Positions 42,084 to 64,000 of a DNA stretch of 64,000 nucleotides are shown one piece after another. The stretch is taken from positions 32,001 through 96,000 of the forward strand of contig JBNKHE010000010.1 of NCBI GenBank assembly GCA_050290185.1, written 5' to 3'. Numbering within the stretch: position 1 is the stretch's first letter; every line of letters begins with the position of its first letter. The stretch is from Pontiella sp. GTDB taxonomy: Bacteria > Verrucomicrobiota > Kiritimatiellia > Kiritimatiellales > Pontiellaceae. Under the pieces are notes generated by a model. It was given only the letters and a program-made list of their open reading frames with translations, had not been told where the DNA came from and made no database searches. The translations under genes and the position numbers were made by a program.

Positions 42084-42087
42084 AAAT

Positions 42088-42138
42088 TGGTAGCGGGGCT
42101 CGGATTTGAACAGAGGACCTTCAGGTTATGAGCCTGAC
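42088..42138 (-). repeat. 3' half of a tRNA-Met(CAT) gene (initiator-like); att site, not an intact tRNA
   Basis: Minus strand GTCAGGCTCATAACCTGAAGGTCCTCTGTTCAAATCCGAGCCCCGCTACCA supplies the anticodon arm, T-arm (one stem mismatch) and CCA. There is no D-arm or 5' acceptor strand beyond 42138. Confidence 0.85.
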
Positions 42139-42261
42139 AAAAATTAGCAAAAACGCGTTATAATAAGGCTAAAATAGAAATATAATTGAGTTATCGTTGA
42201 CTTATACTCCCGGAAAGCGCTCTTATTCTGCCCATCAAGGCCAGTGATGGACAATGAGCGA

Positions 42262-43605
42262 ATGGGGGCCACGGTGGCAAAGAAAAAGTCAAAACGACGA
42301 GCCAAGGGGACGGGGGCGGTGGTCAAGCTGTCCAGTGGCACGTATGCCTTCCAATACTCGGACGCCAGCGGCAGGCGCAAAACGCAATCCCTCAAGACCA
42401 AGAATAAAGCCGAGGCCGAAGAACGGGCGGTGGAGCTGGCCCGGATGCTTACGGCTGGCGATACGGCGGAGGCGGTCTTCCAGATTGCCCGCCAGCGCGA
42501 TCTGGTCCATACCAAATGCCTCCCGTTCGGCGAAGTCTGGCCGGAGTTCCTGAAAACCAATCCAACAGCCGGAGCCGGGACCCTTGACCTGTATGAGCGG
42601 GCTTTGAATAAATTCATTGAATGGATGCTTAAAAACCGCCCGGCCATTGCCGACTTTTCCGAGGTCGATGTCCAGACTGCCCGCGCCTACATGGAGGATT
42701 TCTGGTCAACCGGGATTTCCGCGTCCACCTACAATGACCGACGCAATGCCCTCGGCCACATCACCAAGAGGCTGGCCAACCGCTACCACATTGATGTCAA
42801 TCCGTGGGAGCGGACCGAACGGAAGAAAGGGGTGCAGCAAAAACGCCTGCCGTTGAGCCGGGAACAGGTAACGGCCTTGATGAAGAAAATGGACGAGGAG
42901 AAGCTTACCTATCCCGATGAAATGCGGTGTCTGATCCTACTGGGGCTTTATGCCGGAATGCGTTTGGGGGATGCGGTGTTGCTCGAAAAGCAGTGTGTAA
43001 ACATGAAGGCTGGCCGCATTGACTACACCCCCAGCAAGACGGCGAGTACCTCCGGCGTACAGGCACAGGTGCCAATCCTGCCGCCGTTGGCGGAAGCAAT
43101 CAGCGTGTTGCCGAAGCATGAAGGGGACCGCCTCCTGCCGAAGATAGCCGCGCATTACAAGCGAAACCCGGAATACATAAAAGACGCCCTTATCGAACTG
43201 ATCCACAAGGTTACAGGCGATGCCAAGCAGACCACGAAGGCGCAATTCAAACGCTCACGGTCGCTTTATGGCTTCCATAGTTTGCGCCACACATTCGCGT
43301 CCGAGGTCGCTCGATGTGGGGTGTCAGCAACTCACCTGTCGATGTTAACGGGCGACACCATTGCGACGCTGCAAAAGTTCTATGTGAAGATCGGACTGAA
43401 TGAGCCGCATGTGCAGGGCTTTGAAAGTATCGCAAGGCTGCTTGAATCCAAACCTGTCAACGGGGACCGGGAGCGCGAAGAACTGCGGAAGTTGGCCGAC
43501 GACCTGCCCATCGAAAAGGTCCGCGAATTGATCAAGTTGGCGCGGGCCAAGGATGTTAAAGGGGTCGCGACCACCAAGGAATTACAGGAGCAAGGAGCAA
43601 AATGA
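42262..43605 (+). CDS. Tyrosine recombinase/integrase
   Basis: N-terminal arm-binding-like region (AKGTGAVVK...RKTQSLKT), LYAGMRLGD, FHSLRHTFA, KFY. Start uncertain (42244-42274). Confidence 0.9.
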   Translation: MGATVAKKKSKRRAKGTGAVVKLSSGTYAFQYSDASGRRKTQSLKTKNKAEAEERAVELARMLTAGDTAEAVFQIARQRDLVHTKCLPFGEVWPEFLKTNPTAGAGTLDLYERALNKFIEWMLKNRPAIADFSEVDVQTARAYMEDFWSTGISASTYNDRRNALGHITKRLANRYHIDVNPWERTERKKGVQQKRLPLSREQVTALMKKMDEEKLTYPDEMRCLILLGLYAGMRLGDAVLLEKQCVNMKAGRIDYTPSKTASTSGVQAQVPILPPLAEAISVLPKHEGDRLLPKIAAHYKRNPEYIKDALIELIHKVTGDAKQTTKAQFKRSRSLYGFHSLRHTFASEVARCGVSATHLSMLTGDTIATLQKFYVKIGLNEPHVQGFESIARLLESKPVNGDREREELRKLADDLPIEKVRELIKLARAKDVKGVATTKELQEQGAK

Positions 43606-45742: not shown

Positions 45743-45876
45743 CCTCGATTTCCATGTCGATCCATACACTGATGCGTCGTGTTCAACTATTAACATGGGC
45801 CGAAAGGCCCATTTCTTTTTCTATTCAATCCATGGTTGTTGGGATTGGGCGGATTTTGATTCTGGGGGCGATTGCG

Positions 45877-47582: not shown

Positions 47583-50500
47583 ATGGGGATACGCGGAGAT
47601 AAGGGGCAGAGTAGCAACTTCCGTTTTTTGGAAGAACACGATGCTGTCTTTCTCCAATTGGTCACCACTGCCGAACAGGTTTTCTCCTCCGACCCCAATA
47701 CTACACTGATTAAACTCAGGCAACTGGGTGAGGCATTGGCCCAGAATATAGCTGCCCGTTGCGGTATCTCTTTTGATGAGCAGACCAGCCAGTCGGACCT
47801 TCTTTACAAACTGAACCGTGAAATCTCACTTGATCCGGAGATTCGCGAGCTGTTCCATACGCTCCGGATCGAAGGCAACAGGGCAACCCACCAATTCCAA
47901 ACCCGCCATGGGGAGGCCATGAATGGCCTCAAGATTGCCCGGACGCTGGCCATTTGGTTCCATCAATCCTTCGGTGCCAACGGAACGCATTTTAAGCCCG
48001 GTCCATTTTGTCCGCCGCAGGATCCTAGTATGCCTCTACGGGAACTGCGGGAACAGATCGAGCAACTCAAAGCCAAGCTCCATGACGCCAATCAGGAAAT
48101 CGAGTCCAGCCACGAACTGGCAGAGCTCGTTGCTCGCGAAAAGGCTGAGTACGAGACTCTTGCCGAAAAAATGGATGAGGATGCCCGTACCTACGAGGCA
48201 ATCGCTCTCGAGAACGAAGCAAAGTTGGCAACCATGCAAGCCGACTATGAGCAGAAACTCGTCGACATGCAGAAACAGTTGGATGCCCAGGCTGCCAAGA
48301 GAGTTTCCGAGAAAACCCATAAAGCGGCCAAGCATGTCGATTTGAACGAAGAGCTGACCCGCATCATCATTGACCAGCAGTTGATTGCTGCTGGATGGGA
48401 AGCCGACACGCAGGAGCTCACCTATGCCAAAGGTGCTCGCCCTGAGCCTCGGAAGAACAAGGCCATTGCCGAATGGCCCACCGTTGGACGCCAGTCTGCC
48501 GACTATGTACTGTTCGCGGGGATGACTCCGATCGCGGTCGTTGAGGCGAAACGGGAAAATACCGATGTGGCCGGAAAGATTCCTCAGGCTGAACGCTATT
48601 CCAGCGGATTCCCGCTTGCGGCCGATCATTACGCCGCATGGCGGCTTGCCGGTGAGCAGCAGGCATGGAGCGATGGGGAAGGCGGTACCTACAAAATTCC
48701 CTTTGTCTATTCATGCAATGGCCGCCCCTTTATCAAACAACTGTCGGAAAAATCAGGTACCTGGTTCAGGGATGTCCGCGCGCCTTCCAATCTGAAAAAA
48801 GTACTCAGCGATTTCCACTCACCGGAAGGTCTGCTGGATCAGCTTTCCCGCGACAAAGCGGCGGCCGAAGCCAAGCTAAGGCAGGAAGGCTTTGAATACC
48901 TCAAACTGCGCGACTATCAGGAAAAGGCGATCAACGCGGTTGAAAGCGCGTTGGAGAAGGATCAACGCGAATGCCTGTTGGCCATGGCCACCGGCACCGG
49001 CAAAACCCGCACCATCATCGGACTGATGTATCGCTTTCTTAAAGCCGAACGTTTTAAGCGGATCCTGTTCCTAGTGGATCGCAGCGCGTTGGGAGAGCAG
49101 GCGCAGGACGTGTTCGATGAAGCCCCGCTGGAACAAAACTCCCCGCTCTCCAAAATCTACAACATCGCCCAGCTTGGCGACATGGCCGCAGAAGCCGAAA
49201 CGCGCATTCAGGTCGCCACCGTGCAGGCTATGGTCAAACGGATCTTCATGTCGGACAACCCTCCCTCCATCGATACCTATGACTGCGTCATTGTCGACGA
49301 GGCCCACCGTGGCTATACCCTCGATCAGGAAATGACCGACAACGAAATCCAATTTCGGGATCAGGCGCAATATCTATCCAGCTATCGCCGGGTGCTTGAC
49401 TGGTTCGATGCGGTCAAAATCGGAATGACCGCGACTCCTGCCAGGCACACCTCCGAGATATTCGGCAAGCCGGTCTATACCTACACCTATCGCGAAGCCG
49501 TTGCTGACGACTGGCTCATCGACCACGAACCGCCCATCCGCTACCGCACCAGACTGGCGGAAGAGGGCATCCGGTTTGAAAAAGGCGAAAAGGTCGAGGT
49601 GGTGAACGTCAGATCCGGCGAGGTGGACGAAGCGGAACTGGAAGACGATCTCGACTTTGAAGTCGAAGCGTTCAATCGGCGTGTCATTACCAAGGATTTC
49701 AACCGGGTGATCTGCGAAGCGCTGGCGGAGGAGCTGGATCCCTTCAGCGATGAAAAGGTCATGATCTTCTGTGTAACCGACCTGCATGCCGATATGGTCA
49801 AAACAGAGCTGGATAGGCAATTTGCAGCACTCTACGGCGATGACTACAACCAGAACGCGGTGCGCAAGATTACCGGAAAGAGCGATCAGGTTGACAAACT
49901 GATCCGGCACTACAAGAACGAGCGCAATCCTGTCATCGCCATTACCGTCGATCTCCTCACCACCGGAATCGATGTGCCCAGCATCTGCCATCTCGTATTC
50001 CTGCGCCGTGTCCGTTCCCGCATTCTCTATGAACAGATGGTCGGGCGCGCCACCCGCCGGTGCGACAAAATCGGAAAAACCGAATTTAAGATTTACGACC
50101 CGGTAGATCTCTATGCCGCGCTCGACGAAGTCTCCACCATGAAGCCCCTGGTGAAGAACCCGAACATTCCATTGGAACAGTTGGTCGATGAACTGCTTCA
50201 GCCCGAACATCACGCCTTGGCCGATAATCGCGAAAGGAGCCATGCCGACGAAGTGCTCGACGCCATCAATCAGAAGGTGATGCGGATTCTACGAAAGGCC
50301 CGCAAAAAGGCGGAACGCGACGGACGGGTGCGCGATAAACTCGACGAGTTGGAGGATCTATGGGGCGTTGAACCCTCAACACTGCACAGGCACTTCCATG
50401 AAATCGGACCGGAAAAGGCGGCGGAGTTTCTGACAACCCATTCCGGGTTTATCCAACAGATGGAAGATGTGAAAGTGTTGGTCGGCTCGGATAACAATCC

Positions 50501-51065
50501 CGTTATTTCCTACCACGAAGACGAACTGATTGGCCGCGAACAAAACTATGGCGTGCATCAGCGCCCTGGCGACTATCTTCAGGAGTTCGCGGAATTTGTG
50601 AAAGGCCACGTCAACGACAACGCCGCACTCTCCGCCGTTGTCAACCGCCCGAAGGATCTCACGCGCGAGCAACTCAAAGAGGTGAAACTCTATCTCGACC
50701 AGAACGGCTTCTCCGAAGCCAACCTGAAAAGCGCATGGCGCGGCCAGACCAACCAGGAAATCGCCGCCAGCATCATTGGCTATATTCGTCAGGCCGCCCT
50801 CGGCGAAGCGCTCATTCCCTTCGACCGGCGGGTTGAGATGGCCATGGGGAAGATATACAAAATGCGGAGCTGGACCACCATCCAGCGCAAATGGCTCGAC
50901 CGCCTCGCCAAGCAGCTGTGCCATGAAGTGGTGATCGACCAGCAGGCCGTGAATGAAATCTTTGCTAACGACGGCGGGGCAAACCGGCTGAACACCATCC
51001 TGCATAAACAGCTTGAATCCGTTCTCGAAACCCTCGCCGAATCGCTTTGGAATGAGGCCGTATAG
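47583..51065 (+). CDS. hsdR: Type I restriction endonuclease subunit R, EcoKI-like
   Basis: ADYVLF...VVEAKR nuclease motif, MATGTGKT, IVDEAHRG, MTATP, LLTTGID, QMVGRATR. Confidence 0.95.
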   Translation: MGIRGDKGQSSNFRFLEEHDAVFLQLVTTAEQVFSSDPNTTLIKLRQLGEALAQNIAARCGISFDEQTSQSDLLYKLNREISLDPEIRELFHTLRIEGNRATHQFQTRHGEAMNGLKIARTLAIWFHQSFGANGTHFKPGPFCPPQDPSMPLRELREQIEQLKAKLHDANQEIESSHELAELVAREKAEYETLAEKMDEDARTYEAIALENEAKLATMQADYEQKLVDMQKQLDAQAAKRVSEKTHKAAKHVDLNEELTRIIIDQQLIAAGWEADTQELTYAKGARPEPRKNKAIAEWPTVGRQSADYVLFAGMTPIAVVEAKRENTDVAGKIPQAERYSSGFPLAADHYAAWRLAGEQQAWSDGEGGTYKIPFVYSCNGRPFIKQLSEKSGTWFRDVRAPSNLKKVLSDFHSPEGLLDQLSRDKAAAEAKLRQEGFEYLKLRDYQEKAINAVESALEKDQRECLLAMATGTGKTRTIIGLMYRFLKAERFKRILFLVDRSALGEQAQDVFDEAPLEQNSPLSKIYNIAQLGDMAAEAETRIQVATVQAMVKRIFMSDNPPSIDTYDCVIVDEAHRGYTLDQEMTDNEIQFRDQAQYLSSYRRVLDWFDAVKIGMTATPARHTSEIFGKPVYTYTYREAVADDWLIDHEPPIRYRTRLAEEGIRFEKGEKVEVVNVRSGEVDEAELEDDLDFEVEAFNRRVITKDFNRVICEALAEELDPFSDEKVMIFCVTDLHADMVKTELDRQFAALYGDDYNQNAVRKITGKSDQVDKLIRHYKNERNPVIAITVDLLTTGIDVPSICHLVFLRRVRSRILYEQMVGRATRRCDKIGKTEFKIYDPVDLYAALDEVSTMKPLVKNPNIPLEQLVDELLQPEHHALADNRERSHADEVLDAINQKVMRILRKARKKAERDGRVRDKLDELEDLWGVEPSTLHRHFHEIGPEKAAEFLTTHSGFIQQMEDVKVLVGSDNNPVISYHEDELIGREQNYGVHQRPGDYLQEFAEFVKGHVNDNAALSAVVNRPKDLTREQLKEVKLYLDQNGFSEANLKSAWRGQTNQEIAASIIGYIRQAALGEALIPFDRRVEMAMGKIYKMRSWTTIQRKWLDRLAKQLCHEVVIDQQAVNEIFANDGGANRLNTILHKQLESVLETLAESLWNEAV

Positions 51066-51144: not shown

Positions 51145-52263
51145 ATGACTGCAGTAAAGTACCATATAGGGAAGTTTCCGCCTCAAGTACTGAATCTGGA
51201 ACGACTTCTCCCCCTTATTGGTCCGGCCAGTTCCGCTGTAGCCCGTTATGACGGCGTGCTTTCCGCCATCCCCAATGCTTCGGTTCTATTGAGCCCTTTA
51301 ACCACGCAGGAAGCCGTACTTTCATCCAAAATCGAAGGCACGCAGGCGACCATGGGTGAGGTACTCGAATTTGAGGCCGAAGGTGGCCGAAAAAAAGTCC
51401 CGGAAGAGAAGCGCGAGGACATTCATGAAGTGCTGAATTACCGTAAGGCCATGCGTCACGCGGAAAAGCGATTGCAGGAACTGCCGCTTTGCCAGCGGGT
51501 CCTCAAGGAGGTCCATCGGATCCTGTTGGACGGAGTGAGAGGCCAGGGTAAGTCGCCGGGAGAATACCGGAGGATTCCAAACTGGATCGGCCCCTACGGC
51601 TGCTCCATGGAGGACGCACGCTTTATCCCGATCCCCGCTGGTGAACTGGATGAGGCGATGGGGAAATGGGACATATACATTAATGCGTCTGCTCCGGACC
51701 GCTTGCTCCAGCTCGCAATTCTTCATGCGGAATTCGAGTCGCTGCACCCTTTTCTAGACGGTAATGGTCGTCTTGGCCGAATGTGTATTCCGCTCTTCAT
51801 GCATCAGGTCGGATTGATTCAGCGTCCGATGTTCTACATCAGTGCCTATTTTGAAGCCAACAGGGATGAATATTATGATCGGTTGCTGGCCATATCCCAA
51901 GCAGACGATTGGACCGGATGGTGCATGTTTTTCCTTCAGGCGGTCCGTATTCAGGCAGAACAAAACCTTAAAAAAGCCAATGCGGTACTGGATCTCTACA
52001 ACCGGATGAAGCTGAAAATCGCGGATATTTCACATTCCCAGTTTTCGATTCATGCGCTGGAGTGGATTTTTGAACAGCCCATTTTCAACAGCACCGATTT
52101 CATTAAGGCCTCGGGGATCCCCAAGCCCACCGCCACCCGGATTTTGCGTGTTTTGAGGGAAGAGAGCATTCTTCAGGTCTGGCAGGAGTCCCGCGGTAGC
52201 AAACCGGCGGTATACGGATATGCTGATTTGCTGAACGTGGCGGAGGGGTATCAGGCGTTCTAA
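51145..52263 (+). CDS. Fic-family protein with C-terminal HTH
   Basis: HPFLDGNGRLGR canonical Fic motif; SSKIEG inhibitory-helix-like motif. Confidence 0.92.
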   Translation: MTAVKYHIGKFPPQVLNLERLLPLIGPASSAVARYDGVLSAIPNASVLLSPLTTQEAVLSSKIEGTQATMGEVLEFEAEGGRKKVPEEKREDIHEVLNYRKAMRHAEKRLQELPLCQRVLKEVHRILLDGVRGQGKSPGEYRRIPNWIGPYGCSMEDARFIPIPAGELDEAMGKWDIYINASAPDRLLQLAILHAEFESLHPFLDGNGRLGRMCIPLFMHQVGLIQRPMFYISAYFEANRDEYYDRLLAISQADDWTGWCMFFLQAVRIQAEQNLKKANAVLDLYNRMKLKIADISHSQFSIHALEWIFEQPIFNSTDFIKASGIPKPTATRILRVLREESILQVWQESRGSKPAVYGYADLLNVAEGYQAF

Positions 52264-52333
52264 TGGGTACAAGATATAGTGTCAGGCATCGTCTGAACTA
52301 CATAAAAACCGCTTCTTATGGTGGTTTTAACGG

Positions 52334-52428
52334 TTGTGGCTCACGGATGATTCACAAACTAATTTGTGGATCAAAAAAGCTAAAAAATGATTCGCAATCG
52401 AATTTGTGGCTCACGGATGATTCACAAA
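52334..52428. repeat. 25-bp direct repeat with internal dyad
   Basis: TTGTGGCTCACGGATGATTCACAAA at 52334..52358 and 52404..52428, with a degenerate third unit between them. Confidence 0.75.
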
Positions 52429-52642
52429 TTACCCGTCCGTTTGCTTGCATACACTCCTGCAATCAAAACTGGAATAATCATAAATATCTTGTATTCAGTA
52501 TGTTATGCGCTAAGTTGCTTGCATCTGAGTGTAGTTTATTCGGCAAGTGCACAAAGCGGGATTTCCTTCCCTCTGAGGTTACCTCTTCGCTGCTGTCGCT
52601 TCGTGTCTCTGTGCCCTCTATGGTGAAAATTTCTGTTTCCCC

Positions 52643-52703
52643 AAACTTCAAACCTCAAACTTCAACCCGTTTTCTTAAAACCTAACACCTAAAACTTAAA
52701 ACC
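52643..52703 (+). repeat. Degenerate 7-nt tandem repeats just upstream of hsdM
   Basis: AAACTTC AAACCTC AAACTTC, then TAAAACC TAACACC TAAAACT TAAAACC. Confidence 0.6.
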
Positions 52704-52713
52704 GGATTTTCCT

Positions 52714-54357
52714 ATGACCAAAAACGACATTGTCCAAAAGCTCTGGAACCTGTGCGACATCCTGCGCGATGACGGCATCAACTATTCCCACTATGTCACC
52801 GAGCTAGTCCTGCTGCTCTTCATGAAAATGGAGAACGAACAGGTGCTCAACCTCAACAACTTTGACCATCGTCTACCCGAAGGGTGCCGTTGGGCCGATC
52901 TCAAGAAAAAGAGTGGCCTTAACCTGCTCAACGACTATAAGCGCATTCTGCTGACGCTCTCCACCGGCAAGGATGCCGACGGCAACACCGTCGTCACCGA
53001 TCCGCTGATCCTTGCCATCTACAACGATGCCCAGACCAGCCTGCGCGAACCGCGCCACCTCGAACAGCTCATCAAGAGCCTGGATCAGATCGACTGGTTT
53101 TCCGCCCAGCAGGATGGGCTCGGCGATCTCTACGAAGGGTTGCTGGAAAAGAATGCCAACGAAACCAAGTCCGGTGCCGGACAATATTTCACACCCCGCC
53201 CGCTGATCGATTCCATCATCCGCTGCATCAAACCGCAGGCGGGCGAAACCATCCAGGACCCCGCCGCCGGAACGGCGGGCTTCCTGATTGCCGCCGACCG
53301 CTTCATCAAGGACCAGACCGACGACCTTTACGATTTGCCGCCGAAGGAACAGAAACGCCAGCGCAAGGAGTGCTACATCGGCATCGAGCTGGTGCCCGAC
53401 ACGCGCCGTCTGGCGCTCATGAACTGTCTGCTTCACGGCATGGAAGGCGATGACGAGGGCGTAGTGCATCTGGGTAATGCGTTGGGGCAGGCGGGGGAGG
53501 GACTGAAGCCGAGCACCATTATTCTCAGCAATCCTCCCTTTGGAACCGCCAAAGGCGGCGGACGGCCCACGCGCGCCTTTACCCACGCCACCTCCAATAA
53601 GCAGCTTAACTTTCTGCAGCATATCTACAATGGTCTCAAGCCCGGCGGACGCGCCGCCGTCGTCCTGCCCGACAACGTATTGTTTGAAGCGGGCGTCGGC
53701 ACCGACGTGCGCCGCGACCTGATGGATAAATGCAACCTGCACACCATCCTGCGCCTGCCCACCGGCATCTTCTATGCCCAGGGTGTTAAAACCAACGTCC
53801 TCTTCTTTACCAAAGGCACGAAAAAGAATCCCGATCAGGACGAGGGCTGCACCAACAACGTCTGGGTCTACGACCTGCGCACCAACATGCCCAGCTTCGG
53901 CAAACGCACGCCGTTTGGCGACGCCCATCTCGAACCCTTTGAAAATGTCTATGGCAAAAACGCCGACGGCACCTCCAAGCGCACCGAAGGCGATTGGTCA
54001 TTCACTTCGGATGTTAAACACAATGACACGAAGGACTCGAAGCTTAGTGATCTTAGTGTCTTGAGCGAAGCGGGTGTTGATTTGGATTCGTCCCGCTGGC
54101 GCTGTTTTTCCAGGGATTGGATCCGCGATACCAAGGGCGACTCCCTCGATATTTCCTGGATCAAGGATAGCGACAGCGTAGACGCCGCCAGTCTGCCCGA
54201 TCCCGACACCCTCGCCGCCGAAGCCATGGGCGAACTAACCGAAGCCCTGCGCGAACTCGACGGACTCATGGCAGCCCTCGGCTGCGCCAATGAAGCCGAC
54301 GCCCAGAAAACCATGTTGGCCGAAGTGCTTGGATTGTCTGACGAGGGCGTGGAATGA
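52714..54357 (+). CDS. hsdM: Type I RM N6-adenine methyltransferase subunit M
   Basis: GAGQYFTPR, DPAAGTAGFL, SNPPF, LRLPTGIFYAQGVKTN. Confidence 0.95.
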   Translation: MTKNDIVQKLWNLCDILRDDGINYSHYVTELVLLLFMKMENEQVLNLNNFDHRLPEGCRWADLKKKSGLNLLNDYKRILLTLSTGKDADGNTVVTDPLILAIYNDAQTSLREPRHLEQLIKSLDQIDWFSAQQDGLGDLYEGLLEKNANETKSGAGQYFTPRPLIDSIIRCIKPQAGETIQDPAAGTAGFLIAADRFIKDQTDDLYDLPPKEQKRQRKECYIGIELVPDTRRLALMNCLLHGMEGDDEGVVHLGNALGQAGEGLKPSTIILSNPPFGTAKGGGRPTRAFTHATSNKQLNFLQHIYNGLKPGGRAAVVLPDNVLFEAGVGTDVRRDLMDKCNLHTILRLPTGIFYAQGVKTNVLFFTKGTKKNPDQDEGCTNNVWVYDLRTNMPSFGKRTPFGDAHLEPFENVYGKNADGTSKRTEGDWSFTSDVKHNDTKDSKLSDLSVLSEAGVDLDSSRWRCFSRDWIRDTKGDSLDISWIKDSDSVDAASLPDPDTLAAEAMGELTEALRELDGLMAALGCANEADAQKTMLAEVLGLSDEGVE

Positions 54358-55754
54358 GTGAAATCTGTATTCCAGATGAATGGATTTTTTGTGCAGTCGG
54401 CGAGCTGGGTGAGATTGTAACAGGGAAAACCCCAAGTACAAAAGACAAGGCAAACTTTGGGGGCGAAATACCGTTTCTAAAGCCAGGCGATCTGGATGCA
54501 GGAGGTAACATAGCCTCTACTCAGGATACTTTGAGTGAAAAGGGTTTAGCGTTGGTGCCGTCATTGCCCAAACATTCGATAGCAGTAACATGTATTGGAA
54601 ATTTAGGGAAAGTAGGCATTACGACAAGAGAATCAGCCTCCAATCAGCAGATTAATTCTATTCTTCCTAGTCCGCATGTTAGCCACAAATTCTTGTATCA
54701 CTATATGACTTCAATGAAGTGGTGGCTAGAGCAAGAAGCCTCAGCAACCACCGTTGCTATAATCAATAAAGGAAAGTTCTCAAAAGCACCTGTAAAATTA
54801 CCTCCCCTCGCAGAGCAGAAAGAGATTGCGGCGCGGCTGGATGATTTACTGGCGCAGGTGGCCTCCATCAAAACCCGCCTCGACGGCCTCCCCGCCATCC
54901 TAAAACGCTTCCGCCAATCCACCCTCGCCGCCGCCGTCTCCGGAAAACTCACTGAGGAGTGGAGGGGAACTCCGGCAATAGAAACAAATCAATCTCCTGT
55001 AACTATTGGGCAGGAAAATAATCAAACTCCCAAAGGTTGGGACTGGAAGAAGCTTTTGGATTTGGCGGACCTTGAATCTGGACATACGCCTAGAAAGTCA
55101 GTCTCTGAATACTGGGAGGGTGGTGACGTATATTGGATCTGTCTTCAGGATATTCGTGCTGCTCATGGTACGACGATTGTCGACACGAAGCATAAACCGA
55201 CCATGCTGGGGATTGAAAACTCAAGTGCCCGCTTATTGCCTAAAGGAACGGTCTGTTTCTCTCGCGATATTTCCGTTGGTTTTACGACGATTATGGGTCA
55301 CGAGATGTCAACTACGCAACATTTTGCGAACTGGATTTGTGGAGAAGAGCTTTTCAATGAGTATCTTATGCTCGCACTTATGGCAGCCAAAGATCATCTG
55401 ACGATTTCTGGGCAGGGGACGACTGTTAAGACCATATACATGCCTGCATTAAAAGAGTTCAGGTTGCTCACCCCTCCGGAAAAAGAACAAACTGAAATCG
55501 TCCGACGGGTGGAAGAACTGTTTGCGTTTGCGGATCAGGTAGAACAGCGGGTGAAGGATGCGCAGGCGCACGTCAACCATCTGACGCAATCCATCCTCGC
55601 CAAAGCCTTCCGCGGCGAACTCACCGCCGACTGGCGCGCCGCCCATACCGACCTCATCACCGGCGAAAACTCCGCTGCAGCCCTCCTAGAACGCATCAAA
55701 TCCGAACGCGCCAAGCTGAACCCGAAAAAACGAACGCTAAAATCTAAATATTAG
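54354..55754 (+). CDS. hsdS: Type I RM specificity subunit S
   Basis: Two AT-richer TRDs separated by conserved helices: LPPLAEQKEIA...AVSGKLT and PPEKEQTEIV...SILAKAFRGELT. Confidence 0.93.
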   Translation: MSEICIPDEWIFCAVGELGEIVTGKTPSTKDKANFGGEIPFLKPGDLDAGGNIASTQDTLSEKGLALVPSLPKHSIAVTCIGNLGKVGITTRESASNQQINSILPSPHVSHKFLYHYMTSMKWWLEQEASATTVAIINKGKFSKAPVKLPPLAEQKEIAARLDDLLAQVASIKTRLDGLPAILKRFRQSTLAAAVSGKLTEEWRGTPAIETNQSPVTIGQENNQTPKGWDWKKLLDLADLESGHTPRKSVSEYWEGGDVYWICLQDIRAAHGTTIVDTKHKPTMLGIENSSARLLPKGTVCFSRDISVGFTTIMGHEMSTTQHFANWICGEELFNEYLMLALMAAKDHLTISGQGTTVKTIYMPALKEFRLLTPPEKEQTEIVRRVEELFAFADQVEQRVKDAQAHVNHLTQSILAKAFRGELTADWRAAHTDLITGENSAAALLERIKSERAKLNPKKRTLKSKY

Positions 55755-55778
55755 GCTGAGTAGAAAGGAATTATCGTT

Positions 55779-56516
55779 ATGACTGATGGAGATGTGCAGG
55801 TAAGGCTTAACCAAGTCTCAAAGCAGCGTTGGTCTGTTGATCTGGTAAAGGAAGTATACGGGGTGGATCTGAGCGAGAAATCGTCCCTAGTAGTACAGTT
55901 TAAACTGTGGGCTGGCAGGTATGACAAGGACTTGACGGTAATCGGTGACGATGTTGATCGTTGGATGTTTCAATTGTTTCTGCAAGATCGGGAGTGGGTT
56001 CCCTCTACGATTGCCGCACCTCAGTTAGGTCTTAAAAAGGACGATTTCGAGAACGTCTTGGGCAAGATGAAAGAGAAGTCCTTCATCTCGGAGGTCGAAC
56101 ATGGTGGTTTGTTCCCTAGTGTTTATTCTAAAAACTTCATAAATGATTTGCCCGAACGACTGCCCTCATTCCCTCGTCAAATTTGGGCTTCGCGATCCAG
56201 TCATGTACGGGCCTTCCATACGGCTCTCGAAAAGGATCTTGGTTTTGAGGTTTCACTGCTGCTTTGTTCTGCCTCTATCCGTTTTGGAGACCCAGATCCT
56301 GAAGTTTCTATCGAGCAAGACATTATCACCAACGAACCTATTGGGCTTAAGTATCAGGACTGGATGAATTTTGGGCAGCCAATAGCATTAAAGCCTGATG
56401 CATGCTCAATCTTTACGTTGGCACAGCATGCTGAGGTTTTGGCTCATTACAGAATGAGTAAAGGGAAAGATGAGCTGTTGGAAAGAGCTAGCGAAGTGAT
56501 CGGACAAGGGAAGTAA
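55779..56516 (+). CDS. Hypothetical protein (245 aa)
   Basis: ORF with RBS AAAGGA directly after hsdS; no family recognised. Confidence 0.65.
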   Translation: MTDGDVQVRLNQVSKQRWSVDLVKEVYGVDLSEKSSLVVQFKLWAGRYDKDLTVIGDDVDRWMFQLFLQDREWVPSTIAAPQLGLKKDDFENVLGKMKEKSFISEVEHGGLFPSVYSKNFINDLPERLPSFPRQIWASRSSHVRAFHTALEKDLGFEVSLLLCSASIRFGDPDPEVSIEQDIITNEPIGLKYQDWMNFGQPIALKPDACSIFTLAQHAEVLAHYRMSKGKDELLERASEVIGQGK

Positions 56517-57262
56517 TGATGTTCATTTCTTCGGGGGCGAACAATTTAATAAGCAGCATGAATATCGGGAACCGACCCGATGGAACGCACTATGTTCCTC
56601 TTGTATGTGGGAAGAAAATCAAGGAAGGCATGCGCATTGGTGATGAAGCGCTGCGCGAGTGGTTTTTAAGGTGTGTATCGTCAGGCTCATATTCTGATTT
56701 TTGTATTGAAGATAACATAGCAGTGCTTGGCATCAAAAAGTGGGATAAATCAGGGCTAAAATATCTCAACTTACAAGCCCTTGTAACCCTTCGAGGAACG
56801 ATAGCCGATATGTGCCGTTCAGGAGAAAATAACAACGAATGGAATGATAAATGTCACTATTATCGGTTGGAATATGATCCATCAAAACCGGGCCCTATCT
56901 TCAAAGAACCTCTTCCGCATGTACACGTCTACCCAGGTGGTGCCCCTCGATTCCAATTCTCTGGTTGTGATCCTAAGACGCTGTTCGTAGATTTTATTGA
57001 GTTTTTGTATCTCAACTATGCTCACTCCAAGTGGGTAGGCTGGGCTCGTAGAATTTGGAAGCAAGGGACGGATTTTTCGCCATGCGAAGATTCGTTTGAT
57101 GCAGTTGTTGCTGCATATGATGGCGGGCGTAGTAGTGAGTTGATGGGGCGGTACAAAGGTTCAGTAATTGATCTGAAAATGGTGCTGAAAAAAGAAAAGC
57201 ACAGGCTTTCGGCTGGGCATGCCATGCTTTCGGATACAGCAGATACCCTTTCGTATAGGTGA
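56516..57262 (+). CDS. Hypothetical protein (248 aa) with a YYRLEYD...PLPHVH motif
   Basis: TAATG overlap with the upstream ORF; the motif loosely resembles DUF2290-type proteins. Confidence 0.65.
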   Translation: MMFISSGANNLISSMNIGNRPDGTHYVPLVCGKKIKEGMRIGDEALREWFLRCVSSGSYSDFCIEDNIAVLGIKKWDKSGLKYLNLQALVTLRGTIADMCRSGENNNEWNDKCHYYRLEYDPSKPGPIFKEPLPHVHVYPGGAPRFQFSGCDPKTLFVDFIEFLYLNYAHSKWVGWARRIWKQGTDFSPCEDSFDAVVAAYDGGRSSELMGRYKGSVIDLKMVLKKEKHRLSAGHAMLSDTADTLSYR

Positions 57263-57327
57263 TGTCGATAGCAGCAACGCACTCAAAAGTGCTAATGGAT
57301 GACGAAGCGGCCAAAAGGAAATGGCTT

Positions 57328-57519
57328 ATGTTTCTAGGGATAGAAAAAGATAAGGGATTGTTTTACGAGGGCGGTGATCTGTTCACGGGGATGCGCGCCG
57401 TATTACCACCGCCACATCTTTTCGATATGCAGATACTCGGTGCCGCATTATTGGAGCGCATCAAAACCGCCTGATCCAACCTGAAACCGAAAAAGAAGCC
57501 CCGGAAGGGAAAGGGATAA
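57328..57519 (+). pseudogene. Junction remnant: 5' end of the 58698 gene joined to an hsdS 3' tail
   Basis: 57329..57434 repeats 58699..58804. 57442..57519 reads AALLERIKTA*SNLKPKKKPRKGKG*, against HsdS AALLERIKSERAKLNPKKR. Confidence 0.8.
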
Positions 57520-57520
57520 C

Positions 57521-58687
57521 ATGGGCCAGCAGAGTGAAATGATGATTGAGGCCATGGATCAATGGTGGGGAGCTTCAGGAAAATTTGTCTGCGAAAATTG
57601 CTTAACCGCGTCATCGCTTCAGAAAGCCATTCGAGAAAATATTGTGCCGGACCACAACTGTTCTTTCTGTGAAAATGACCGTGCGGCATCACTCGATTAT
57701 CTGATGGAACATCACATCATGCCTGCAATCTGGAATGAATATACGGAGGCGGTCAATGAGCTCAATTGGGTTGACGGGGAGTGGCTTGGAGAGTATCAGG
57801 ACACGTATGATTTGATCGAAGATGTCATCGGCGGATATGACGGAACGGATTTTGGGGATTTGACCGAAACCATTCGTGATTCAATCCGTGATACCCATTG
57901 GTGTCGTCAAAACTATTATGGCGTTCAACCTGAAGAAACACGTTTGTTTCGATGGCGCGGGTTTGCTCACATTGTTAAGCACACGACCCGCTATTTCTTT
58001 GGGGATACCATTATTGAAAAAGAACCATCCGAGCAGGATGAAACCGATATTCTTGGATTTTTGAATGATCTAAAAGAGATTATTGAACGTGAACTACTCT
58101 GGAATATGCGCCCGAAGACGGTCATTTTTCGGGCTCGGGTTGATAAAACGAAGCATACCTCTATTCAGGAGCTTGGAGCGCCACCCTATCATAAAGCTTG
58201 TTATTCAAACCGTATGACTCCCGCAGGGATTTCAATGCTCTATGGGGCCTTAGATGCGCAAACTGCCAAGGCAGAGGTCGGTGAGCTTAAGTCCGATAAA
58301 ATAATGACTCTAGCATCTATACGCCTCATTCCTGAAATTCAAGTAGTGGACTTTACTCGATTACCCCCACCGCCGGACTTCTTCGATTTGGACAAGAGTT
58401 CTCGCCGCTATCTCTGTCAGTTTTTATGGAGTTTTGTTAAAGAGCTTGCCGCTCCAATTGAAAAGGATGGTCGAGAACATATTCAGTACGTCCCGACACA
58501 GGTGCTTACCGAGTATCTAAAAACCACGTTATTAGTTAATGGCATGATTTTCCCAAGCTCACGGTATGCGGGTGGAAAATGTGTTGTTCTGTGGAGTAAA
58601 GATTTTGTACCGAATAGGAGTGGTAATTCTTCAGGATTAGAATTGGTAGATGCTGAGTATTATGGCTTGGACTTGATTAAAGTCTGA
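57521..58687 (+). CDS. RES-domain protein with N-terminal Cys-containing (HEPN/RES-NTD-like) region
   Basis: FVCENC...CSFC; IFRAR, NRMTPAGISMLYGA...AE, YVPTQVLTEY, FPSSR. Confidence 0.85.
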   Translation: MGQQSEMMIEAMDQWWGASGKFVCENCLTASSLQKAIRENIVPDHNCSFCENDRAASLDYLMEHHIMPAIWNEYTEAVNELNWVDGEWLGEYQDTYDLIEDVIGGYDGTDFGDLTETIRDSIRDTHWCRQNYYGVQPEETRLFRWRGFAHIVKHTTRYFFGDTIIEKEPSEQDETDILGFLNDLKEIIERELLWNMRPKTVIFRARVDKTKHTSIQELGAPPYHKACYSNRMTPAGISMLYGALDAQTAKAEVGELKSDKIMTLASIRLIPEIQVVDFTRLPPPPDFFDLDKSSRRYLCQFLWSFVKELAAPIEKDGREHIQYVPTQVLTEYLKTTLLVNGMIFPSSRYAGGKCVVLWSKDFVPNRSGNSSGLELVDAEYYGLDLIKV

Positions 58688-58697
58688 TGGAGGTTCA

Positions 58698-59600
58698 GTG
58701 TTTCTAGGAATCGAAAAGGATAAGGGATTGTTTTACGAGGGCGGTGATCTGTTCACGGGGATGCGCGCCGTATTGCCTCCGCCACATCTTTTCGATATGC
58801 AGATTGGCGATACCCCTGCCACTGCGCTGAAGAATCTGATCGAAGCCGAAAAGGCCGAATCAAAGAAGTTTCTTTTCCGAGAGGATGGTTTCGATCCGGT
58901 TTCAATGGTCCGCCGTGGCAGAATATATCAGCCGTATGTTGAGCAGCCTAATGAATGTCGTGTAGCTCCGATTGATACGCTTGATCGCGTCCAGAGCAAC
59001 CCCTTTTATCCAGAAGGACCGGTGCTTATCAAGCGACTACACACCTATCAGCCGTATGCACTGAGTCTCAATGCTCCGGAGAATAAATATGCCATCATCG
59101 GGACGCAGACCGCCTATTCCCTCTGGCGCATTGTTTCCATAGACCAGATGTATCTGAACGATGAGCTGTTAACGTTGCGTCCCCTCCATTCGATGGGTGC
59201 TCTGCCTGATCTTGAATTGAGCAATGTTCCCGAGCCGTGGAAAACCAAGGTATCGGATACGGTTGGCAAAGTCATCGATGCCATGCACCACGCGAATGCC
59301 GACTCCATCATCGAGCTATGCCGCCACGCCGCGGCGGCGGCCCTCTTTGCCCATTTCCATGAAGACATTAAAAAGTTGAGCGGAACCGATCTTGGCAACC
59401 TCGCCGATGATGCCGGCAAAGATGGCAAACGGATTGTCGCGAGCTGCGGAAAAATCATTGCCGACCTTCATTCCCGAATAAAACCCAATATGCAGGTTGA
59501 GCTTGATCTCCGGCCCATTTCCGACCGCGACGCCGAACTCGCCATCTACAGTCTCTCCTGCATTCTCAGCGATTTGAATTTTACAAACGAAGGGCAATAG
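58698..59600 (+). CDS. Hypothetical protein (300 aa), helical C-terminus possibly HEPN/Abi-like
   Basis: GTG start after GGAGG; SIIELCRHAA...LHSRIKPN. Confidence 0.65.
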   Translation: MFLGIEKDKGLFYEGGDLFTGMRAVLPPPHLFDMQIGDTPATALKNLIEAEKAESKKFLFREDGFDPVSMVRRGRIYQPYVEQPNECRVAPIDTLDRVQSNPFYPEGPVLIKRLHTYQPYALSLNAPENKYAIIGTQTAYSLWRIVSIDQMYLNDELLTLRPLHSMGALPDLELSNVPEPWKTKVSDTVGKVIDAMHHANADSIIELCRHAAAAALFAHFHEDIKKLSGTDLGNLADDAGKDGKRIVASCGKIIADLHSRIKPNMQVELDLRPISDRDAELAIYSLSCILSDLNFTNEGQ

Positions 59601-59609
59601 AGAGTCGGT

Positions 59610-59837
59610 ATGGATTATGCACCGCAAATTTTGGAGATGCTGGCCCAGGGGAATGGCCTCAAGGCATTGCAGATTTCCATGGAACTTGGCATAGACCGGA
59701 AGCTGGTAAAGTCCATTCTCTACGGACGGCTGAAGGGACAGGTCCGGCAGGATAAAAGCTATCGCTGGCATTTTGCTTCTGCGACACACTCTGAGACACA
59801 AACGTCCTTCTGGAGTAATTATTCCTCAAACGTATAG
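59610..59837 (+). CDS. Short winged-HTH-like ORF, possibly a truncated gene
   Basis: ILEMLAQGNGLKALQISMELGIDRKLVKSILY...YRW. Confidence 0.5.
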   Translation: MDYAPQILEMLAQGNGLKALQISMELGIDRKLVKSILYGRLKGQVRQDKSYRWHFASATHSETQTSFWSNYSSNV

Positions 59838-60010: not shown

Positions 60011-60910
60011 ATGATGCATAAAATCAACAGGAAGCGTTGGGCGGTTAGTGGATTTGTAATATTGGCGCTCGTTTCAATCTTTATCGGGGGATGTTTCCGG
60101 CACGATGATAACGTATCTATGGCACAAATTAGCACACTTGATAAAGTGCGTAAGACCGGTGAGTTGCATGTAGGATATTTTCTATTCGAACCAACAATTA
60201 TGCAGGACAAAAATGGGAAGCTTAATGGTGTTTTCATTGATTTGATTGAATCCATAGGCAAAGCGCTTGATGCAAAAGTTATCTATCACAATGTGGATTT
60301 AGCAAATTTCGTTGCAGGACTTCAGTCGCAACAATATGACGTCTCCATTGGTGCTACATTTGCAACCCCCCAGCGAGCGACAGCTGTTGCATTTACCAGC
60401 CCCATCTTTTATTGCGGATATACTGGTGTTGTGAAACCTGAAGAGGTTGGCAAATATAATACATGGCAGGATATGGATAAGAAAGGCACTAGGGTTGCTG
60501 TGAAGCAAGGAAGTGCTATTGATGATTTTGTGCGCGAGAATTTTAGAAACGCAACTATTGTACGTCTGCAAGGTGCTGACTTAACACTCCCCTTGGCAGC
60601 GGTATCATCTGGTCAGGCTGATGTGGGACTAATGAATCAACTAACAGTTTTCACTTATCTGAGAGCCCACCCTGAGTTGAAAGAAGTGTTAGCGAAGAGG
60701 CCAATCGTGCCAACTAACTTTTCATGGGCTGTTCGACAGGGCGATCAACGTTGGTTGAATTATCTCAATACATGTATTCAATATTACATAAACACTGGCG
60801 ACATATATAAATGGGAAAGCAAATACGGAATTCCTCTCATGCACAAGAATGAGGAGCTGGTGTTTCCAAAGATGTCATATCCTCAGTATTGGGTTCCCGA
60901 AAAGCAATAA
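60011..60910 (+). CDS. Polar amino-acid ABC transporter substrate-binding lipoprotein (SBP family 3)
   Basis: FIGGC lipobox-like, TLDKVRKTGELHVG, GVFIDL, TPQRA..VAFT.P. Confidence 0.88.
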   Translation: MMHKINRKRWAVSGFVILALVSIFIGGCFRHDDNVSMAQISTLDKVRKTGELHVGYFLFEPTIMQDKNGKLNGVFIDLIESIGKALDAKVIYHNVDLANFVAGLQSQQYDVSIGATFATPQRATAVAFTSPIFYCGYTGVVKPEEVGKYNTWQDMDKKGTRVAVKQGSAIDDFVRENFRNATIVRLQGADLTLPLAAVSSGQADVGLMNQLTVFTYLRAHPELKEVLAKRPIVPTNFSWAVRQGDQRWLNYLNTCIQYYINTGDIYKWESKYGIPLMHKNEELVFPKMSYPQYWVPEKQ

Positions 60911-60963
60911 TCTAGGAGCAAGGAACTGTAAGTTCATGCCAACATTATATTGGATAAGCTATC

Positions 60964-61647
60964 ATGTACGAATGGGATTTTAGATGGGTCTGGACTTACC
61001 GGGAACAACTTCTCTCTGCCCTGGGAATGACAGTTCTGCTTAATTGTTGGATCCTATTATTGGGAACACTTGCCGGTATCTTTTTGGGGCTTATTGCGAG
61101 ACACAGACATCCTTACATCCGCGGTTTGGCTCGTATTTATATCGATGTTTTTCGCACCTTGCCTGTGTTAGTATTATTAGTGTGGTTCTTCTTTTGCATT
61201 CCAATTCTACTTGGGGGTATTCGCATTTCGGGATTCACATCAGCAGTTATTGTCCTTTCTCTCAATCTGTCCGCATTCATAGCAGAAATTGTTCGTGCGG
61301 GTGTGGATGCTATTCCGGCCAGTTATATAAATGACGCTAAAGCATCTGGATTAAGTAGCTGGCATACTAATCGTTTCATAGTTCTTCCAATCGCTCTTCG
61401 GATTATGATTCCTCCACTTGTTGGTCAGTTTATCAACACAATCAAACTATCTGTGCTGGCTTCCGTTATTGCTGTTCCAGAACTTCTTCATCGAACAACG
61501 GAGATTATTAGCCAAGTCTATCGCCCCCTTGAGTTTTACACTGCTCTAGCTGTTATCTTTCTTGTTCTTCTTCTTCCTGGAACTCTCTGGTCTCGGCGAT
61601 TAGAAAAGAAAGCCGAGCGCTTTGTTTTGAAAGGGGATTTGTCATGA
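60964..61647 (+). CDS. Polar amino-acid ABC transporter permease
   Basis: YIDVFRTLPVLV, SAFIAEIVRAG, AKASGLS, IKLSVLASVI. Confidence 0.9.
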   Translation: MYEWDFRWVWTYREQLLSALGMTVLLNCWILLLGTLAGIFLGLIARHRHPYIRGLARIYIDVFRTLPVLVLLVWFFFCIPILLGGIRISGFTSAVIVLSLNLSAFIAEIVRAGVDAIPASYINDAKASGLSSWHTNRFIVLPIALRIMIPPLVGQFINTIKLSVLASVIAVPELLHRTTEIISQVYRPLEFYTALAVIFLVLLLPGTLWSRRLEKKAERFVLKGDLS

Positions 61648-62447
61648 ACTCACCTTTGGACACGTTTGAAAGCTCCGGAATTTCTGGGGAATCGGATGTT
61701 CTGATGGTGTCGAATCTTACAAGGGGATATGGAAAAGGTCGGGGGATCTTCAATACATCGTTCAGCCTGCAACCGAAACGAATACTCAGCTTTATTGGCG
61801 CAAATGCATCTGGGAAGTCGACGCTCATGCGATGTGCCACTCTCTTTGATTTAATGGATCAAGGGACGATAGTAATTAATGGCGAAATCATCGTTGATGT
61901 TGGTGAAGATATATGCACGCTTCCTTCAAAGAATGATTTAATTAAGCTACACGGCGGAATAGTTGGAGCAGTTTTTCAAGACTCACAGCCTTGGCCGCAT
62001 CTTACGGTCGAAGATAATGTAGTACTGCCTCTTGTGAAAAGTCTGGGCTTTTCAAATGTTGAAGCTAGACAACATGCAGCGACCGTACTCCATGAGTTTG
62101 GATTAGAAGATCGTTTGAGCTCATTTCCTTGGGAGCTCTCTGGGGGCCTCCGGCAGCGGGTTGTGTTAGCTAGAGCATTAGCCCTTAATCCCCAATTCAT
62201 TGCAATTGATGAGGGGACGAGTGCATTAGACCCTGATTGGACAGAGCGGGTTCGTCTCATATTGCGAAAATACGCTGAAGCCGGTGCAGCTGTCTTGTTG
62301 ATTAGTCATCAGATGGGTTTTGTTAAAAGGCTGTCTGACGACGTGTGCTTTCTCCATCATGGCCGTATCCATGAGCAGGGTGATCCAAGCAGGATCTTTG
62401 AAAATCCTCAAACTCAAGAGCTAAAGGAGTTCCTTGAAAATGCCTGA
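61644..62447 (+). CDS. Polar amino-acid ABC transporter ATPase
   Basis: GANASGKST, LSGGLRQR, IAIDEGTSALDP, ISH. Confidence 0.9.
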   Translation: MNSPLDTFESSGISGESDVLMVSNLTRGYGKGRGIFNTSFSLQPKRILSFIGANASGKSTLMRCATLFDLMDQGTIVINGEIIVDVGEDICTLPSKNDLIKLHGGIVGAVFQDSQPWPHLTVEDNVVLPLVKSLGFSNVEARQHAATVLHEFGLEDRLSSFPWELSGGLRQRVVLARALALNPQFIAIDEGTSALDPDWTERVRLILRKYAEAGAAVLLISHQMGFVKRLSDDVCFLHHGRIHEQGDPSRIFENPQTQELKEFLENA

Positions 62448-64000
62448 GCCGCTTGACAAGAAACAATCTATTAGCTGTGCTCTACAAGAGCAGCTTGAGG
62501 AACTCAGAAGAAGAGTTCTGGGATACACTTTTGGCGGTCCACCATCCCAGTGGTGCGATGGAGACAGTGAACTACCTGGCATACTTCTACCCCCGAATCC
62601 ATTGGAGCCGCACACGGCGAGACGTATTCTATTTCGGGGGTGCGAGAAATACCAGAGCTGTGACCTGATTCCCGATGAAGTACGTTGGAAAACATGGGAG
62701 GTCATGACAGATGACGAAAGAGATTCCCTTCGTTCTGTTGGTTGCTACCGTGCTTCACGTGCTGATGTTTGGGATGTCAATGCTTTGCCGAGCCGCCAGA
62801 ATACCAACTATAAAGGCGAATGGATAGGGAATCCATTTGGGTTGCGAACTACAGAGGTCGTCCATGCCGCAAACAATCCAAAAGATCAAATCGATATTAG
62901 TAGACTACATCGTGATTATACTCCGTGCCCAGTTGGGGGTTGTATAACGCCTGAGATGCAGCGTACTTTCGAGTGGAAGTATACCGATGGCTCTGACCAT
63001 GTAGGTCTTTGCCACACCGAGGCTTGCCCTTTCCATTACAGGCACACTGGCGATACATTGATTCATGCTGAAGCCAATCCCCTGCGTTTTGCACAATGTC
63101 ATGTAACAAAACCACATTTCAGGCAACTTCTAGAGGACAATGGCATAGTCGTCGTCGCCCCAGTTCATCGATCGCCAGAGGGCCGAGATGCCCCGGGTGA
63201 ATCCTATTGGTATCCATTCTATGCCGGATATGCTTTCTTACAAGTCCCTTCCCGAGCACCGATAAAGAAGGGATTCCTGGACTGCTCTCTTACAGTTCGT
63301 TGGCTACTTACTCGCCTTGAGCGAGAGAATCTGTCTCGTGCATTCCGGCGACTTCCTATCCGGGCAGTCTTCGAGGCAGCTGAGAAAGGCATGCACACGA
63401 CATCTTGGGAGAAGCGCTTGGGGATAATCTCTGTTTCAGAGGGACAGGCTTCCTTCTTCCTTTTGCAGTGGATATTATGCAGGCGCATGCTGGCAATGCT
63501 CTCCAAAGCAGATGTCACGGAGACGCTATCCCTCACATCTAAACTGGAGTGGGTATACGCGGGACAAGGGGAGGCTTTCCATGAACGTCTATCTGAGATT
63601 GAGTCCCTAGGATTTGAGCTTCAAAGTCAATTCGGATTGTCCACAGCAAATGATGGAAGTTTTGTTCGCGTGGCGGACTTCCGGGATGATTTAGCGTTGC
63701 TTGGTCTAATTGATGAGAATGATAGGCCAACACGAAGATTTGAATGCTCTCTTCTCTGGCTCAAAGCGCGAATTGCGTGGGCTGATAAGCGTTGTCATGA
63801 CAGTAAGGAGGATACTCTCGATGATGTCGTGGCTTCAAGGCTTGGATCATTGCTCAATGATGCGCGCTATTTATGTGAAGAAGCTCTAAAGGACAAGGAA
63901 CATCTGTCTTGGGCTCTCCCAAGGTTCGTTTGGCTCTTGATCTCCATAGCATCAGGACAGCATCTAAAGGCTCCTCGTATGCCGGGAGCTGACTGGCATT
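62440..64000 (+). CDS. Large unknown protein, partial (at least 520 aa, open to the window end)
   Basis: Absent from the ORF track. My translation from ATG at 62440 (overlapping the ATPase stop, with AAGGAG upstream) is stop-free: MPEPLDKKQSISCALQEQLEELRRRVLGY...APRMPGADWH. Confidence 0.7.
   Translation, partial: MPEPLDKKQSISCALQEQLEELRRRVLGYTFGGPPSQWCDGDSELPGILLPPNPLEPHTARRILFRGCEKYQSCDLIPDEVRWKTWEVMTDDERDSLRSVGCYRASRADVWDVNALPSRQNTNYKGEWIGNPFGLRTTEVVHAANNPKDQIDISRLHRDYTPCPVGGCITPEMQRTFEWKYTDGSDHVGLCHTEACPFHYRHTGDTLIHAEANPLRFAQCHVTKPHFRQLLEDNGIVVVAPVHRSPEGRDAPGESYWYPFYAGYAFLQVPSRAPIKKGFLDCSLTVRWLLTRLERENLSRAFRRLPIRAVFEAAEKGMHTTSWEKRLGIISVSEGQASFFLLQWILCRRMLAMLSKADVTETLSLTSKLEWVYAGQGEAFHERLSEIESLGFELQSQFGLSTANDGSFVRVADFRDDLALLGLIDENDRPTRRFECSLLWLKARIAWADKRCHDSKEDTLDDVVASRLGSLLNDARYLCEEALKDKEHLSWALPRFVWLLISIASGQHLKAPRMPGADWH

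Follow-up and report, generated by a model that had tools for sequence, protein, structure and literature searches.

We describe a 64,000-nucleotide stretch of DNA from Pontiella sp. (assembly GCA_050290185.1, contig JBNKHE010000010.1; hereafter the window), in which two diverged alleles of one restriction-linked interval are joined in a single locus. The interval belongs to an integrase-led island that carries hsdR, SoFic, hsdM and hsdS. Read 5' to 3' on the forward strand, the locus consists of an intact hsdS with two Methylase_S stretches (54354..55754); two cargo genes, ORF245 (55779..56516) and ORF248 (56516..57262, its start overlapping the ORF245 stop by one base); a 36-codon 5' stub of ORF300 (57328..57434, allele 1); the tail of a second, foreign hsdS (57435..57519); a RES domain gene (57521..58687), which starts one base past the last stop of that tail; and a whole ORF300 (58698..59600, allele 2). 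An earlier note on this DNA had proposed the same layout, and the sequence bears it out. As the best reading of it, one that we hold tentatively, anchored homologous recombination together with a non-homologous joint would have brought the two diverged alleles together at 57434/57435.

The two copies of the ORF300 5' end (57329-57434 and 58699-58804) are 95% identical. Five of their differences are synonymous, exactly as the earlier note had stated (GGG/GGA, ATA/ATC, AAA/AAG, TTA/TTG and CCA/CCT), and none changes an amino acid; a sixth is the start codon, ATG at 57328 and GTG at 58698. Given these codons, with a synonymous fraction of 0.22, the chance of five out of five being synonymous is ~5e-4. 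Five synonymous changes and no replacement mean that the copies diverged as working genes: they are two alleles and not a fresh duplication, in support of the note's claim that two alleles were joined. The second hsdS tail, which the note had also called diverged, is identical to the tail of the window hsdS at 41/57 positions (57438-57494) and to the tails of five relatives at 37-44/57, so that none of the compared hsdS tails is its parent. The ORF300 stub reads in frame into this tail, with an in-frame TGA inside it at 57472-57474. No further copies of the stub, the tail or the pieces of the repeat are found in the 3.58-Mb assembly.

A strain-mixing assembly chimera had been named as one outcome that would undo this picture. 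Logan contigs from three of four sequencing runs (X1, a possible source of the assembly, and X3 and X4 from the same study) cover the joint with no differing letter; run X5 gave only two 151-bp pieces of the RES gene and was not used. The contigs that span the joint (57375-58503, 57375-58748 and 57375-58774) include 60 letters to its left. Seen unchanged in contigs of three runs of one study, the joint at 57434/57435 is real. All covering contigs stop at a 56-bp identical core (57349-57404), so by themselves they do not prove the order of the left, RES and right blocks. Read depth in the Logan contigs is even across the three blocks (6.7-9.6, three runs) and both ends of the RES block run into the core, which supports the order short of proving it. 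Divergent ORF300 alleles appear in runs X3 and X4 at depth 2-3. It is conceivable that the joint is genuine and that the assembler, mixing two strains, misplaced the RES block across the core: the assembly has 163 contigs, and the contig ends at the core and the common origin of the runs leave room for it. However, the even depth, the shared core at both block ends and the presence of no second hsd operon of this type in the assembly make such a misplacement very unlikely.

The same note took the interval between hsdS and ORF300 to be a swap hotspot between two conserved anchors. Our comparison set comprised 89 genomes of the order; in the tabulation of the slot G015, whose locus stops at a contig end, was left out. 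Scanning genome contigs with a single protein gave no match, and an alignment-based scan gave matches. Close hsdM genes (63-89%) occur in six other genomes of the set. Tabulating the genes between hsdS and ORF300 in these relatives revealed no constant content: all five intervals, from four genomes, differ, and their size ranges from 0.06 to 1.6 kb. The window contributes two, one with ORF245 and ORF248 and one with the RES gene. In G006, hsdS is followed by a 384-aa orphan, a 27-codon 5' stub of ORF300 and a fragment of another gene, which we take to be a small alarmone synthase and which has no match in Pfam. Behind hsdS of G042 lie Gp49, HTH and SecB-like genes, a 3' stub of another gene and a whole ORF300 (77%); from its Pfam matches, the Gp49-like/HTH_3/SecB-like row (L177:14734-15969) is presumably a toxin-antitoxin-chaperone module. 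In G080 a 12-codon stub is fused to the last 27 codons of ORF300, with an HNH gene next. Further hsdS ends lead into a 525-aa ATPase (G060) and a 178-codon fragment (G032); in G060, G032 and G002, the stretches examined behind the related hsdS end showed no ORF300. All that is left of the G002 operon (L189:7348-8730), beside tRNA-Asn, is a 5' stub of hsdR and a tail of hsdS, with an intact DUF4357 gene between them.

The variable content thus stands, but ORF300 is no conserved anchor: it is whole in two of the five intervals and a 5' or 3' stub in the other three, with matches in only 5/401 genomes of the class. Since this right anchor is rare and often broken, the slot itself makes a poor mining target. 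The idea of mining it for new defence genes is weakened further by the few loci available here, and the mining of cargo linked to restriction-modification (RM) systems has already been published, judging by the accessible part of that report (bioRxiv 10.1101/2024.01.29.577857).

Variation is not confined to this slot. The gaps between hsdR and hsdM, between hsdM and hsdS, and 3' of ORF300 are variable as well, with gene stubs at many joints. The SoFic-type Fic gene in the hsdR-hsdM gap of the window (51145..52263, forward strand; PADLOC SoFic, E 8e-107) has 91-92% counterparts in G060 and G032; G006 holds other genes there, and the gap is empty in G042, G080 and G015. Because the neighbouring gaps vary likewise, we regard the hsdS-ORF300 slot as one of several in a scarred mosaic island. 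On the far side of ORF300, ORF75 (59610..59837, forward strand) is the 5' stub of a gene for a 1115-aa helicase-nuclease: across 63 aa it is 65% alike to the complete G065 gene, which matches AAA_11, AAA_12 and MTES_1575, and the likeness stops near 59771. Stubs of this gene also occur in G009 and G069. In G065 (L186:1779-7050) there is a second variable slot, where a RhuM/Fic gene and an HNH gene lie 5' of the 1115-aa helicase, and in G009 (L188:9922-12844) pieces of the G065-slot genes surround a 688-aa ATPase. Short imperfect direct repeats (28 + 27 nt, 40-70 apart) occupy the SoFic-hsdM gap of the window at 52263-52685 and are partly common to G060 and G032.

Silent sites indicate which stretches may have been exchanged. 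We counted identical codons among sites with the same residue and compared this fraction with a shuffled expectation. Against G042 and G080, hsdR has 43% silent identity (shuffled: 42% and 40%) and is saturated. For hsdS the values rise to 81-82% in the central region and 67-81% in the distal region (shuffled: 51-58%; at most 1 in 2000 shuffles reach them), and for the end of hsdM to 73-76% (shuffled: 59-61%). The distal conserved region of hsdS (55483-55729, forward strand), 83-91% identical in five relatives and with a silent-site excess, is the likely left recombination anchor. In hsdR of G006 the identity switches near codon 250, from 52% in codons 1-230 to 93% past codon 260. On these figures, recent exchange at the conserved regions of hsdS between otherwise saturated operons is likely. 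The related operons lie beside different tRNA genes, namely His (G006), Thr (G042), Gly and Pro (G032) and Asn (G002), and the G060 integrase is just 24% alike to that of the window; hence the block moves without one fixed element.

In homology-facilitated illegitimate recombination, a homologous anchor and a non-homologous joint would give such a mosaic in one step. Here, the homologous crossover would lie at one end, in sequence common to the hsd genes or to ORF300; the opposite end would have been closed by a non-homologous joint, of which the ORF300 stub and the foreign hsdS tail would be the scars. Cargo could shift between restriction operons at different tRNA sites, with the hsdS conserved regions and the hsdM end serving as anchors and ORF300 as a passenger that would often land directly behind hsdS. 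Judged by their context, the cargo genes are probably anti-phage.

Several points weigh against this explanation. No parent allele was found among the compared sequences, so microhomology at the joint is not readable. ComEC and DprA are present, yet matches to them also occur in 10 and 11, respectively, of the 14 control genomes, which makes them uninformative about competence. The silent-site excess could come in part from constraint at the DNA level rather than exchange; codons 1-450 of hsdM are also above the shuffle (53% vs 44%), and the excess in the ORF300 5' end is marginal (20/30 vs 93/192, P 0.048). Only four of the compared genomes have the linked pair hsdS-ORF300. In addition, a simple deletion accounts for the scars of G080 and G002, and att copies lie in tandem in the genome, both of which favour the main rival. 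It holds that two sister islands, each of the form hsdRMS-cargo-ORF300, stood in tandem at tRNA-Met, and that one deletion ran from codon 36 of the first ORF300 into the second hsdS tail. Contig C10 carries two att copies with an integrase-like gene after each, contig C9 has an intact tRNA-Met with further likely defence genes 5' of it, and scars of the deletion type are present in G006 and at ORF75 as well as in G080 and G002. Hybrids are known to arise from tandem arrays of SXT/R391 elements, according to the accessible part of PMC2786100. The difficulty is that two elements with the same restriction module are required at one site, whereas in relatives the module sits at other tRNAs, with unrelated or no integrases, and no intermediate appears among the 89 genomes. 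We consider the tandem arrangement a possible origin of the locus, though a doubtful one.

The 56-bp core bears on another route as well. It bounds the RES block on both sides and all six differences lie outside it, as they might if the RES block had left a donor as a loop closed by a non-homologous joint and had been inserted via a single crossover within the first 36 codons of the resident ORF300, with re-excision possible. An identical run of 18 codons among 36 nevertheless has a chance P of ~0.07, the predicted phase swap is absent from the relatives' alleles, and no joined form without the RES block was seen, though the contigs could not reveal one; this route is unlikely. In four intervals the cargo begins at one position in hsdS, give or take a few codons, and reaches as far as the start codon of ORF300, which would suit a dedicated site-specific system using the hsdS tail and the ORF300 head as cassette ends. 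But the break points differ (codons 36, 27 and 274), the joints have no inverted repeat or common motif, the slot has no recombinase, and stubs of four other genes are found too, which leaves such a system scarcely credible. An integron-like cassette array was ruled out by the differing break points and the absence of a repeat at the joints. A homologous anchor with a non-homologous joint remains our preferred account.

The passenger itself deserves closer attention. The structural model of ORF300 (pLDDT 89.6) combines a beta-rich N-terminal domain with a predicted HEPN domain (residues 175-299). The latter takes the four-helix HEPN fold in the model, with the HEPN protein AF0298 (2hsb) as top match (Z 11.2, rmsd 3.8, 116 aligned); most of the top 15 fold rows are HEPN, and helical bundles can reach ~Z 13 by chance. 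Foldseek searches of PDB and viral libraries returned no ORF300 match at E 0.001. The N-terminal domain (58698-59222) resembles five phage neck/head-closure proteins weakly (Z 6.0-6.8), which may reflect a mere common arrangement, and contains nearly invariant REDxFD and RRGR motifs, each in 143/153 homologs. An HxRxK motif is found in 146 of the 153 whole homologs; the canonical later His is present in 16, and the family does not follow the Rx4-6H pattern. In the HEPN proteins AF0298 and AbiV, too, the motif His is absent and a differently placed His may serve instead, according to the accessible part of PMC3710099. We predict that ORF300 is a HEPN RNase toxin with an alternative HxRxK site.

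No Pfam or NCBIfam name was found in 39 members of the family, and the best PADLOC match is PDC-M41B (E 0.008). Homologs include P0004 of Pontiella (74%) and L021 of Kiritimatiellales. Abi_C (PF14355), the UniRef label of P0004, was rejected: none of the 39 members matches it at E 0.1, and an Atlas row at 0.87 has Abi_C in 13% of its members.

We fetched 162 ORF300 loci, of which 158 contained a match; 37 were too short, leaving 121 informative. In 28 of these hsdS lies directly upstream (18 with a 4-base stop/start overlap), in 8 within 4 kb and in 4 elsewhere, while 81 have none. Four of the eight distant slots hold a 985-1014-aa gene that we take to resemble HsdR, so the true distant slots may be four. 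Clustered at 70% identity, 22/71 groups have hsdS directly upstream; by Pfam alone, Methylase_S is the commonest class among upstream neighbours (21/127). A quick tree of the family requires 14-19 gains or losses of the adjacency. With adjacency in part of the loci and this many changes, ORF300 is therefore an RM-leaning passenger. It may back up the restriction enzyme, and its position and fold suggest a PrrC-like guard role, in which the toxin would be kept silent by binding the RM complex. More speculatively, and with considerable doubt, ORF300 could represent an undescribed group of HEPN toxins that guard type I restriction enzymes. Translationally coupled to hsdS in many lineages and bearing HxRxK in place of Rx4-6H, it would have a phage-neck-shaped sensor and fire once a phage blocks the restriction complex or assembles virions; the conserved regions of hsdS, through which specificity domains are shuffled, would then also be landing pads that swap passengers between unrelated operons. 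Within the limited literature searched we found no paper on the locus or on an ORF300-type HEPN family. As far as the accessible part of Payne et al. allows, the family could sit in their PDC lists under a model that PADLOC 2.0 missed.

Among the other cargo genes, ORF245 belongs to an unnamed family of 245 clusters at 50% identity and has no name in Pfam or PADLOC. Its model (pLDDT 97) is weakly alike to a MerR/Xis winged helix with a small His/Cys module (best Z 4.9); no entry reached Z 5 in a wide PDB search, a result that is not evidence of a new fold. Foldseek found no match for it in PDB and viral libraries at E 0.001, and a PDB sequence search with its profile gave a best E of 0.049. 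Neither ORF245 nor ORF248 has a match in plasmids, and ORF245 has none in viral contigs. The homologs P0048 and P0045 come from contigs of equal length (2983) and probably share one, which suggests that ORF245 and ORF248 form a pair. Of the two ORF245 homologs in G110, one lies at a contig end and the other is not followed by an ORF248 homolog, so the two genes may not always occur together.

ORF248 has two homologs. Its first Atlas match has DUF2290 in 15% of members, with low recognition, and the likeness is weak: ORF248 has no Pfam match, and P0046 meets DUF2290 at E 0.033, below the cut-off. In the accessible part of PMC9122126, DUF2290 belongs to a helicase-paired anti-T7 system; ORF248 has no such partner here, ORF245 (245 aa) giving no helicase match. 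The RES gene has a known architecture, HEPN/RES-NTD1 followed by RES, with both domains above the Pfam cut-off (PF18870, E 1e-26; PF08808, E 4e-13) and 159 plasmid records; homologs at 29-34% are present in 4/88 other genomes of the order. No PADLOC model matches ORF245, ORF248 or the RES gene, and their context suggests a defence role.

The rest of the island frames this locus. A partial tRNA-Met gene lies at its left end (42084..42138, minus strand): this copy of the 3' part, a likely att site, is 98% alike both to the intact tRNA-Met gene (G000:C9:18080-18156) and to a copy outside the window (C10:102407). In total the 3' part is present three times (42084-42138, G000:C10:102407-102457 and G000:C9:18076-18130), and a tandem island stack may span C10 and C9. 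The following genes are on the forward strand: a tyrosine integrase (42244..43605; XerC/XerD-type NCBIfam, E 2e-13, below cut-off), hsdR, the type I restriction subunit (47583..51065; PADLOC REase_I, E 1e-275; Pfam ResIII and EcoEI_R_C), and the methyltransferase gene hsdM (52714..54357; PADLOC MTase_I, E 2e-217). The type I set of hsdR, hsdM and hsdS is present and open in full. Inside the island, 3' of an HTH_17 excisionase-like gene, a DNA polymerase A-like gene lies in two pieces at 45754-47040 (Pfam DNA_pol_A, E 3e-4 and 7e-7). A later stretch of the same island (60011-64000 and L009:2435-9001) encodes a low-GC amino-acid ABC transporter (binding protein, permease and ATPase), an 891-aa orphan, a sigma-54 activator, a methyltransferase and a class V aminotransferase. 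At 6351-41528, a LacI-type regulator precedes a long cluster of co-oriented glycoside hydrolase genes, many of them resembling arabinofuranosidases or arabinanases.

Variable RM-linked defence slots are a known kind, and the allele splice described here is real. How cargo is replaced next to restriction genes is still a matter of argument by comparison; here both scars of a single event are preserved and the relatives reveal which stretches were exchanged, so the route becomes testable. Three genes also emerge as candidates that neither Pfam nor NCBIfam names and that PADLOC does not name firmly: ORF300, with 158 loci and repeated coupling to hsdS, ORF245, with its 245 clusters, and ORF248. 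Experiments on the HEPN family and on the ORF245/248 pair would be worthwhile.

The comparisons that follow draw on the accessible parts of the works cited. Homology-facilitated illegitimate recombination is known from transformable laboratory species (PMC6382021). The hotspots of P2 and P4 prophages (Rousset et al. 2022, PMC9122126) are alike in having a variable interval of 1-5 kb next to a conserved gene, likely defence cargo, and one end proposed to swap by homologous recombination. Their flanks are both conserved phage genes, whereas our right flank is a passenger that is often broken, with two alleles in one locus; of the two marks of a two-anchor hotspot, variable content is found here, but not a pair of conserved and intact anchors (ORF300 whole in 2/5). 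The enteric ICR and hotspot 37 (PMC12707154) similarly place type I restriction genes amid replaced content, in a tRNA-anchored island with an integrase at one end; they lie between core genes and take in entire systems, while here the anchors appear to lie inside hsd genes.

As with the RM-embedded genes of Payne et al. (bioRxiv 10.1101/2024.01.29.577857), RM-linked cargo is a source of defence candidates, and SoFic is embedded in their sense. ORF245, ORF248, the RES gene and ORF300 are not, all being 3' of hsdS, the last hsd gene. For ORF300 the nearest parallels are PrrC and Ronin (bioRxiv 10.1101/2023.04.06.535777; PMC3710099). RonA, a 61-aa membrane peptide, is unlike it; PrrC and RloC have an N-terminal ABC-ATPase where ORF300 has a beta-rich domain of 170 aa with no ATPase match, and they are nearly always in type I RM loci, while 81/121 ORF300 loci have no RM link. 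PrrC and Ronin share with ORF300 the tight linkage of a predicted toxin to hsdS, and PrrC, too, has a HEPN domain.

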